A DNA stretch of 64,000 nucleotides from NCBI GenBank assembly GCA_050246315.1, contig JBFWWG010000006.1, positions 155,002 to 219,001 on the forward strand, written 5' to 3'. Shown here piece by piece: positions 32,327-32,706 of this stretch. The stretch is from Nitrospiraceae bacterium (GTDB lineage Bacteria; Nitrospirota; Nitrospiria; Nitrospirales; Nitrospiraceae). Every line of letters begins with the position of its first letter. Position 1 is the stretch's first letter. The translations under genes and the position numbers were made by a program. Under the pieces are notes generated by a model that worked only from the letters and a program-made list of their open reading frames with translations, searched no databases and was not told where the DNA came from.

Positions 32327-32706
32327 TGCGGGGTGGAGCAGCTTGGTAGCTCGTTGGGCTCATTCCGCAGGATCTCCATGAGCACGACCCCCATGGGTCA
32401 TGGTTCCGCCGCTTATCGGAACGCATGGCATCTGATCCTGCAAAGGGCTGCGCAGGGGGAAACCTCTGCGAGATCACCTGTCAAAGTCGGGGAAGCCGTT
32501 GGCGGGGTAACCCCGAGCCAAGCTCAAGTGGCCATACCGGTCCTTGAGAAGGTGTAGAGACTTGATGGCAGGCACCCTCCCGGTGGCGCGAGCCAGCCGA
32601 GGGTGAAGGGAAAGTCCAGACCACGAACTGGTCCAACCAGGCAGCGAAAGCTGTAGCGGTACGCATAACCCAAAGGTCGAAGGTTCAAATCCTTCCCCCG
32701 CAACCA
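32327..32706 (+). tRNA. Initiator tRNA-fMet(CAT), exons 32327-32360 and 32664-32706
   Basis: Joined exons give TGCGGGGTGGAGCAGCTTGGTAGCTCGTTGGGCT^CATAACCCAAAGGTCGAAGGTTCAAATCCTTCCCCCGCAACCA; three G-C pairs in the anticodon stem and an A11:U24 pair. Confidence 0.93.
32361..32663 (+). ncRNA. Group I self-splicing intron (IC3-like, 303 nt)
   Basis: Follows U33 and ends in G; core blocks GTCAAAGTCGGGGAAGCC, GGTAACCCCGAGCCAAGC, GAAGGTGTAGAGACTTGA and GGTGAAGGGAAAGTCCA resemble the Azoarcus tRNA intron; GAAA tetraloops in P2 and P9. Confidence 0.93.

Follow-up and report, generated by a model that had tools for sequence, protein, structure and literature searches.

How does a bacterium whose genome scores 100% for completeness obtain its initiator tRNA, if a standard tRNA finder reports no gene for it? 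This question arises from a Nitrospiraceae genome (4.39 Mb, 59.7% G+C, 30 contigs) in which ARAGORN, run with default settings, called 46 tRNAs and no initiator. We analysed a 64,000-nt stretch of contig JBFWWG010000006.1 (hereafter the window), where the same program reported only a tRNA-Val and did not call an interrupted tRNA-fMet gene at positions 32327–32706. A sequence-only reading of the window had proposed that this gene is split after U33 by a group I intron, and that naive tRNA scans may miss it. The warning was borne out, since the default Rfam scan, like default ARAGORN, returned nothing at the locus. The proposal itself was upheld: a match to an Rfam model, covariation, the intron option of ARAGORN and an intron-less gene in a close relative confirmed, at the level of sequence, that the 303-nt insert is a group I intron interrupting tRNA-fMet after U33. 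The best overall explanation, which we regard as very probable, is that the genome has a single initiator gene carrying a 303-nt intron of type fMet.2Ug (see below) whose endonuclease gene has been lost.

The interrupted initiator tRNA gene

Exon 1 ends in GGGCT (C32 and U33 being the last two bases), with U33 at position 32360, directly before the 5′ splice site. The last base of the intron is G32663, and exon 2 begins with CATAACCC and finishes with an encoded CCA. The occurrence of CAT at both junctions allows four splice registers; of these, only the register joining U33 to C34 has both a U immediately 5′ of the intron and an intron-terminal G. With its intron option, ARAGORN called a tRNA-Met(cat) at 32327–32706, i(35,303), giving the same borders as our manual reading. 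The relative G001, which belongs to the same genus, has an uninterrupted 77-nt gene (locus L028) identical to the window exons joined between U33 and C34, and the exon borders are thus fixed independently of any intron model. The coordinates, the 303-nt spacing and the terminal G given in the sequence-only reading proved to be exact.

A CAU anticodon, three G-C pairs in the anticodon stem, A11:U24 and A73 are established marks of bacterial initiator tRNAs. All of them can be read from the exons, where the three pairs are G29–G31/C39–C41, and the joined exons were assigned to tRNA-Met(cat) by ARAGORN. Published abstracts likewise name the three G-C pairs as an initiator mark. Two other tRNAs with a CAT anticodon occur in the genome, both without the GGG/CCC anticodon stem; by our reading, the one at C2:560590 looks like an elongator Met tRNA and the one at C7:168121 like tRNA-Ile2. 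A search for GGGCTCATAACCC found it on neither strand of the genome, and the only further genome match to the tRNA-fMet gene is a decayed copy of its 3′ part. The interrupted gene is the only initiator tRNA gene found in this genome and, because no other is present, the intron would have to splice. Standard tRNA finders leave the genome without an initiator tRNA, and we recommend annotating the locus as tRNA-fMet interrupted by a 303-nt group I intron. A passage of the tRNAscan-SE 2.0 paper describes the same missing-initiator problem in 36 genomes (PMC8450103).

The region recurs in public sequencing runs: 17 RNA-labelled runs contain at least half of the sampled words of 32200–32850, and all runs with the stretch together come from 11 studies, the majority being sludge or wastewater metatranscriptomes. 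Among named records, the introns most like that of the window come from Nitrospirota or Nitrospiraceae metagenome-assembled genomes (MAGs), and one Nitrospiraceae MAG (L088) has an intron identical to that of G002, a genome of the window's genus. The host is Nitrospirota, Nitrospiraceae-like, in agreement with the non-cyanobacterial host that had been suspected from the letters alone.

Conserved group I core and P1

The Rfam model Intron_gpI (RF00028) matched 32428–32636 over its full length (model positions 1–253), with E-values of 7.8e-9 in a 651-nt search and 1.2e-8 in the whole genome, where this was the sole match. The search with group I models that the sequence-only reading had named as a check gave a divided answer: the match is full-length and stands out genome-wide, but its 40.4 bits lie under the curated gathering score of 50, and a scan at gathering thresholds listed no intron at the locus.

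We next aligned 67 distinct homologous introns of at most 350 nt, which came from relatives and from a pattern scan of public genome contigs. They span many phyla and share 76 invariant columns. The tested structure was drafted from the window copy and comprises P1, P1a, P2–P6, P6a/b, P7 in a pseudoknot with P3, P8 and P9/P9a/P9b. Standard pairs filled 90.9% of 5043 cells, compared with 32.2–42.2% when the 3′ partners were slid by 1–3 columns, a contrast that is tilted towards the unslid register by the derivation of the structure from one aligned sequence and in which the alignment of P1a is weak. Changes on both sides were observed in 57 of the 82 pairs, and the five observed measures were reached by 0 of 500 shuffles. 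P4 and P7, the latter being the guanosine-binding helix of group I introns, are nearly invariant and therefore uninformative for covariation. The 3′-domain helices (11–13) were 94.6–98.5% paired and had 2, 4 and 5 pairs, respectively, with double changes. Folded as a single sequence, the window copy gave z = −3.26 and recovered P1a, P2, most of P3, P6a/b, P8 and P9b. All core helices are intact in this copy and every invariant position of the family is retained. A terminal G precedes CAT in all 87 of the 87 introns that have both junctions.

GGGCT at 32445–32449 had been singled out as able to form P1 with a U33-G wobble, and the alignment agrees. P1 consists of the wobble G30·U32449, the pairs G31-C32448 and C32-G32447, the wobble U33·G32446 and the pair C32361-G32445. 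The three middle pairs, U33·G32446 among them, are invariant in 67 of 67 introns; the pair formed by C(+1) is C-G in 66 of 67 and U·G in one, and the outer G·U is present in only 37 of 67. P1 lies beyond the covariation test because its exon side is fixed by tRNA function. Supporting the P1 assignment, the same P1 is closed by a loop of a few bases in the shortest introns of the family (193–213 nt). In the window the P1 strands are 84 nt apart, with a small internal loop followed by P1a. All 8 pairs of P1a have changed on both sides, the paired cells amounting to 76.2% for seven pairs and 71.9% for the remaining one, on a shaky alignment. The P1a loop holds the remnant of an endonuclease gene, and relatives carry an open reading frame (ORF) at the same place.

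Remains of an endonuclease gene

Long copies of the intron are present in three relatives, measuring 656 nt in G003 and 658 nt in G020 and being cut by the contig end in G013. The ORF of the long copies starts a few bases 3′ of the P1a 5′ strand. The G020 ORF (177 amino acids) matched chain A of PDB 2OST (E = 2.1e-62, residues 2–149) and the Pfam family PF11645, PDDEXK_5 (E = 8.7e-49). The structure table describes 2OST as 'Putative endonuclease', and we take it to be I-Ssp6803I of Synechocystis. Of the 15 introns that exceed 350 nt and have both junctions, 14 contain an ORF matching PF11645, the exception being the 514-nt intron of L036.

Alignment with the long copies of G003 and G020 shows that ~353 nt of the ORF body are missing from the window copy. 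The residual frame retains the start ATG AGC ACG at 32378, ~20 poorly aligned bases and the last codons, SAAYRNAWHLILQRAAQGETSA. This C-terminal end overlaps the P1a 3′ strand, the guide sequence and P2, and the frame continues through P2–P6. In a tblastn-type comparison, residues 128–171 of the G020 ORF matched window positions 32405–32536 with 68% identity (E = 2.8e-12). A PF11645 endonuclease gene is not present in the window intron, which holds remnants only, and the 59-codon frame has no Pfam match; nor does the window's genome contain a free-standing copy, the G020 ORF matching the remnant alone. Judged by these alignments, the window intron is an endonuclease-less derivative of an I-Ssp6803I-type element. 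ORF-less members of the family are also known in cyanobacteria, so the endonuclease gene is not obligatory for membership.

The G003 ORF matched positions 2–96 of the 138 in the Pfam profile, with the rest out of frame, and its endonuclease gene looks frameshifted. Three states thus coexist within a single genus: the site is empty in G001, the intron has a broken-looking ORF in G003, and the ORF is deleted from the intron in the window's genome (G000) and G002, whose 303-nt copies are 99% identical. A cycle of invasion, decay and loss is the general model for homing endonuclease genes, and the states seen in this genus fit it. The coordinates of the gene, the intron and its parts are collected in Table 1.

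Table 1 Features of the interrupted tRNA-fMet locus, in window positions
Feature	Position	Strand	Basis or remark
tRNA-fMet exon 1	32327–32360	+	sequence; tRNA positions 1–33 plus one additional D-loop base
Group I intron (by sequence), type fMet.2Ug, without endonuclease gene	32361–32663	+	303 nt; Rfam RF00028, covariation, ARAGORN intron option, intron-less relative
P1 5′ strand: G30 G31 C32 U33, then C(+1)	32357–32361	+	pairs with 32445–32449; splice site after 32360
P1 extension including P1a (8-bp helix)	32367–32441; P1a 32367–32374 with 32434–32441	+	sequence; reproduced in the minimum-free-energy fold
Residual 59-codon frame	32378–32557	+	alignment with intron ORFs of relatives; TAG in J6/7 at 32555–32557
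Internal guide sequence GGGCU, P1 3′ strand	32445–32449	+	GGGC invariant in 67/67 introns
P2 hairpin, GAAA loop	32450–32471	+	9/9 pairs changed on both sides; 92.4% of cells paired
P3	32477–32483 with 32566–32572	+	91.5% paired; 4 pairs changed on both sides
P4 and P5, inside P3	32487–32492/32511–32516; 32495–32497/32506–32508	+	99.5% paired; 3 pairs changed on both sides
P6, inside P3	32517–18/32552–53	+	structure from window copy
P6a/b, inside P3	32523–32548	+	10/10 pairs with double changes
P7 5′ strand, inside P3	32557, 32559–32562	+	structure from window copy
P8 and extension	32573–32605	+	12/13 pairs changed on both sides; 85.4% of cells paired
P7 3′ strand, AGUCC	32613–32617	+	100% paired, almost invariant, no covariation
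P9	32620–32624 with 32656–32660	+	within the 3′ domain, 32620–32663
P9a hairpin	32628–32640	+	3′ domain
P9b hairpin, GAAA loop	32641–32654	+	3′ domain
tRNA-fMet exon 2	32664–32706	+	sequence; C34 A35 U36 ... A73 CCA, CCA encoded
Likely terminator of the tRNA gene	32723–32766	+	read from sequence; 18-bp hairpin, then TTT

Distribution of the intron

The intron was found in 12 of 40 relatives, namely in 6 of 24 from the window's family (f1), 6 of 6 from f2, 0 of 5 from f3 and 0 of 5 from f4. Of the remaining 28 relatives, 24 have an uninterrupted gene (including G009, and G005, where it is partial at the contig end), one has a run of N (G036) and three gave no match (completeness 73%, 76% and 94%). 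The gene halves of G036 lie 330 nt apart and were considered as a second, divergent intron; this candidate was rejected on account of the run of N inside the gene. In an even sample of the phylum, the intron core (E ≤ 1e-6) was detected in 36 of 401 genomes, G000 included, with 3/75 in f1, 30/40 in f2 and 26/26 in genus g23. Two genomes of f2 (G358 and G370) have two core matches each. The G370 pair is ~300 nt apart and may represent tandem or duplicated intron-bearing genes.

The pattern scan of public genome contigs yielded at least 120 loci; counts from it are of matches listed, not of prevalence, and MAG binning can mislabel contigs. Among the matches listed, at least 75 loci have both junctions of a same-site intron, at least 9 have the core with no exon 2 in the stretch, at least 6 have the endonuclease start only, and 30 are something else or too short to tell. 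By record title, the at least 90 family members include at least 29 from Cyanobacteriota, at least 20 from Nitrospirota, at least 13 from Omnitrophota and at least 5 from Acidobacteriota. Planctomycetota, Pseudomonadota and unassigned records have at least 4 each among the matches listed, and nine further phyla at least 1 or 2 each.

In a quick tree built from 204 core columns, the grouping of the introns mostly follows the phylum of the host. The copies from Omnitrophota and Planctomycetota share a starred clade, and the mainly cyanobacterial cluster is unstarred, with a value of 91 in the Shimodaira–Hasegawa-like approximate likelihood ratio test (SH-aLRT). As for the intron phylogeny that the sequence-only reading had called for, the window copy falls with other Nitrospirota copies, a placement without strong support, and apart from the cyanobacterial cluster; the Nitrospirota groups do not resolve among themselves. 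A 244-nt intron from a MAG labelled Acetobacteraceae (L105) lies inside the Nostoc group, a placement that probably reflects mis-binning of a cyanobacterial contig and not a transfer.

Other loci returned by the scan were of different kinds. Gammaproteobacterial tRNA-fMet-like genes (L091, L104, L115, L122, L129, L134, L135 and L150, from Shewanella, an Oceanospirillaceae MAG, Psychrosphaera, Marinomonas and Neptuniibacter) have the D-arm and the 5′ side of the anticodon stem, followed by ~12–20 nt of different sequence before the variable region. This short stretch is not the tRNA-fMet intron. In L061 and L080, a complete gene is preceded, ~125 nt upstream, by a partial 5′ copy of tRNA-fMet, an arrangement more suggestive of duplication through an inserted element than of an intron. 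L045 and L072 begin in the same way, with a stretch too short to tell; these four loci are from Marinobacter and Saccharospirillum. Further tRNA-fMet-like loci have G or C in place of A at position 37 (CATGACCC, CATCACCC), namely L037, L074, L114, L141 and L142 (Bacillota, Nitrospiraceae, Streptomyces) and L069, L075 and L103 (Herbaspirillum, Streptomyces). They were rejected as introns, the gene being uninterrupted wherever the 3′ part is readable.

Proposed mechanism and alternative explanations

In the proposed precursor fold, the exon end GGCU and the first intron base would pair with GGGCU at 32445–32449, placing U33·G32446 at the splice site. An external guanosine held in P7 would attack after U33. 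G32663 would then replace this guanosine in P7, and the freed 3′-OH of U33 would attack after G32663, ligating GGGCU to CAUAACCC and yielding a normal 77-nt initiator tRNA. These catalytic steps and self-splicing in vivo are proposed by analogy with the established group I mechanism. In the lineage of the window, a deletion of ~353 nt has removed the endonuclease gene from the loop of the extended P1 hairpin, sparing only the first three codons and the C-terminal end of the gene. The element would now be an immobile ribozyme passenger in a late stage of the homing cycle.

Several observations weigh against this account. The Rfam score falls short of the gathering score, P5 has only 3 pairs in the window copy, and P1 amounts to only 4–5 pairs and is not open to covariation. 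Splicing of the intron is itself inferred, and the assembly, being in 30 contigs, could have missed a further initiator gene, despite the completeness score of 100%. Additionally, the tRNA has a Watson-Crick U1-A72 pair (32327, 32702) instead of the usual 1×72 mismatch of initiators. In the loci gathered in this analysis, T:A occupies 1×72 in 29 of 44 from Nitrospirota and C:A in 14, and the mismatch is found in the loci of all other phyla, except for one MAG labelled Pseudomonadota. U1-A72 is a rare known variant, counted in just 66 of 4438 predicted bacterial initiators in a passage of Ardell and Hou (PMC5143459). Many Nitrospirota may fall within this minority.

If the intron had decayed and no longer spliced, the locus would be an initiator-tRNA pseudogene, and the functional copy would lie in unassembled DNA. 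The deleted endonuclease gene, the Rfam score below the cut-off, the short P5 and the 30 contigs are what such a history would leave. Yet the core helices are all intact with the invariant positions kept, G002 has the same 303-nt intron at 99% identity, no other initiator gene was found despite the 100% completeness score, and endonuclease-less copies in 26 of 26 sampled g23 genomes are expected only if the intron splices. We consider a pseudogene very unlikely.

Removal of the intron in vivo might instead depend on a host or intron-derived protein, and the 59-codon frame at 32378–32557 might encode a maturase-like helper peptide. The reading frame of the remnant is indeed unbroken between the former start codon and the region of the former stop, and among relatives the protein sequence of its C-terminal part is conserved. 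This conserved part, however, coincides with P1a–P6, and RNA conservation explains it. The frame has no Pfam match, and the shortest members (193–213 nt) are without any such frame. Furthermore, the classical tRNA-fMet introns and other tRNA introns of subgroup IC3 self-splice in vitro, and such dependence on a protein seems to us most improbable. That the insert is of another kind altogether (a group II intron, an insertion-sequence-like element or the trace of an integrated element) with a superficial likeness to group I is suggested by the decayed tRNA 3′ copy 3.5 kb downstream, a sign that this tRNA gene has been a target of integrating elements, but is vanishingly unlikely given the full-length match to the Rfam group I model (1–253), covariation that fits the group I fold, precise borders with U before the intron and G at its end, homologues that carry an I-Ssp6803I-type endonuclease, and the assignment of the downstream repeat to a separate 3.5-kb insertion behind the gene.

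Beyond the preferred explanation of a splicing, endonuclease-less group I intron in the single initiator gene, the endonuclease-less intron of Nitrospirales might have been co-opted, tying the supply of mature initiator tRNA to the status of guanosine nucleotide and Mg2+. This idea is based on fixation in the sole initiator gene in 26 of 26 sampled g23 genomes, and we strongly doubt it. If true, translation initiation in slow-growing nitrite oxidisers would be restrained at the ribozyme level by the co-opted intron.

Surroundings of the locus

The genes for methionyl-tRNA formyltransferase (Formyl_trans_N, Formyl_trans_C) and RsmB, at 31276–32238 (−) and 29765–31504 (−), are divergent from the initiator tRNA gene and lie 88 nt upstream of it; the tRNA gene encodes the substrate of the formyltransferase. 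No sigma-70-like promoter was returned by the promoter scan, and the hairpin at 32723–32766 is absent from the output of the consensus terminator scan.

At 36162–36200, 3.5 kb behind the gene, the 3′ part of the tRNA recurs as a decayed copy with 90% identity to 32667–32706. In the intron-less G001, the tRNA runs straight into the sequence that lies beyond ~37060 in the window. The stretch 32707–36200 looks like the remains of an integrated element, because G001 lacks it. It holds PEMT/ICMT-like, DUF6010 and unassigned ORFs, and no integrase was found in it. In G003 (L004), the same decayed 3′ copy is only ~470 nt behind the gene, and this shorter stretch encodes, as judged by eye, a small HigA-like helix-turn-helix protein.

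Comparison with known systems

The classical types of bacterial tRNA intron are Leu.3Ug, Arg.5Ug, fMet.2Ug and Ile2.5Ug, with fMet.2 after nucleotide 33, Ile2.5 after 36 and Leu.3 after 34; the group I intron database cited in the same work places all four in IC3, and 5292 split tRNA genes were surveyed there by phylum (Williams 2020, bioRxiv 10.1101/2020.01.27.920355). Nitrospirae may already figure in these phylum counts. On the evidence of site, core and ORF remains, the window intron is a member of the classical tRNA-fMet family, type fMet.2Ug (Synechocystis, I-Ssp6803I), and its IC3 label is taken over from Williams 2020 for that type. The sequence-only reading had described insertion after U33 as the site of cyanobacterial tRNA-fMet introns, consistent with fMet.2 of Williams 2020 and with the junctions of cyanobacterial loci: GGGCT/CA...G/CATAACCC also occurs in Scytonema hofmanni UTEX 2349 (L148), Nostoc linckia (L060), Trichodesmium IMS101 (L059) and others. 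The window core is mostly 75–79% identical to cyanobacterial cores (full range ~68–79%) and 76–81.5% identical to those of Nitrospirota outside the genus.

According to a passage in PMC1995217, the tRNA-fMet intron of Synechocystis sp. PCC 6803 has 655 nt and an ORF of 150 amino acids. Its host gene is that of the window, and its site after U33 is the same as judged from type fMet.2Ug and the other cyanobacterial copies. Its length is close to that of the introns of G003 (656 nt) and G020 (658 nt). The ORF that relatives carry in the loop of the extended P1 hairpin matches 2OST, whose C-terminal 'AWHLILQ..AAQ.ETSA' is kept in the window remnant. Unlike the Synechocystis intron, the window copy is without ~353 nt of the ORF and would not home, its host is Nitrospirota, and its tRNA has U1-A72. 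The ORFs also differ in extent: those of Nitrospirota read through P2–P6 to the stop in J6/7 (177 amino acids in G020), whereas the 2OST chain has 151 residues and ends just past P2.

The ORF-less cyanobacterial introns (L148, L060 and L059) share with the window copy the site, the helix set and the want of an endonuclease gene. Their cores are 72–78% identical to that of the window, and an extension hairpin of P1 is also present, by eye from the alignment. ORF-less cyanobacterial introns are mostly 240–264 nt long, compared with 303 nt in the window, and differ in their ORF remains. In the tree they cluster with one another and not with the Nitrospirota copies.

The introns of Azoarcus tRNA-Ile(CAU), presumably the Ile2 case of type Ile2.5Ug, and of Anabaena/Nostoc tRNA-Leu(UAA), type Leu.3Ug, are IC3 like that of the window, with a short P1, a P2 hairpin and no P5abc. 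We know of no I-Ssp6803I-type endonuclease associated with Ile2.5Ug or Leu.3Ug introns. Both introns interrupt other tRNAs at other sites, after nucleotide 36 and after 34, respectively; the former agrees with the earlier statement that the Azoarcus intron sits after the anticodon (Ile2.5 in Williams 2020).

In a limited literature search, no publication turned up that describes a group I intron in a Nitrospira tRNA, and none on non-cyanobacterial tRNA-fMet introns beyond Williams 2020. Passages of two reviews associate I-Ssp6803I, together with its close homologues, with cyanobacteria (PMC3384342, PMC3943268). The intron type, the insertion site and the mechanism are already known, and the family is already common outside cyanobacteria in public genomes; to the hosts of the I-Ssp6803I-type intron, this locus adds Nitrospirota.

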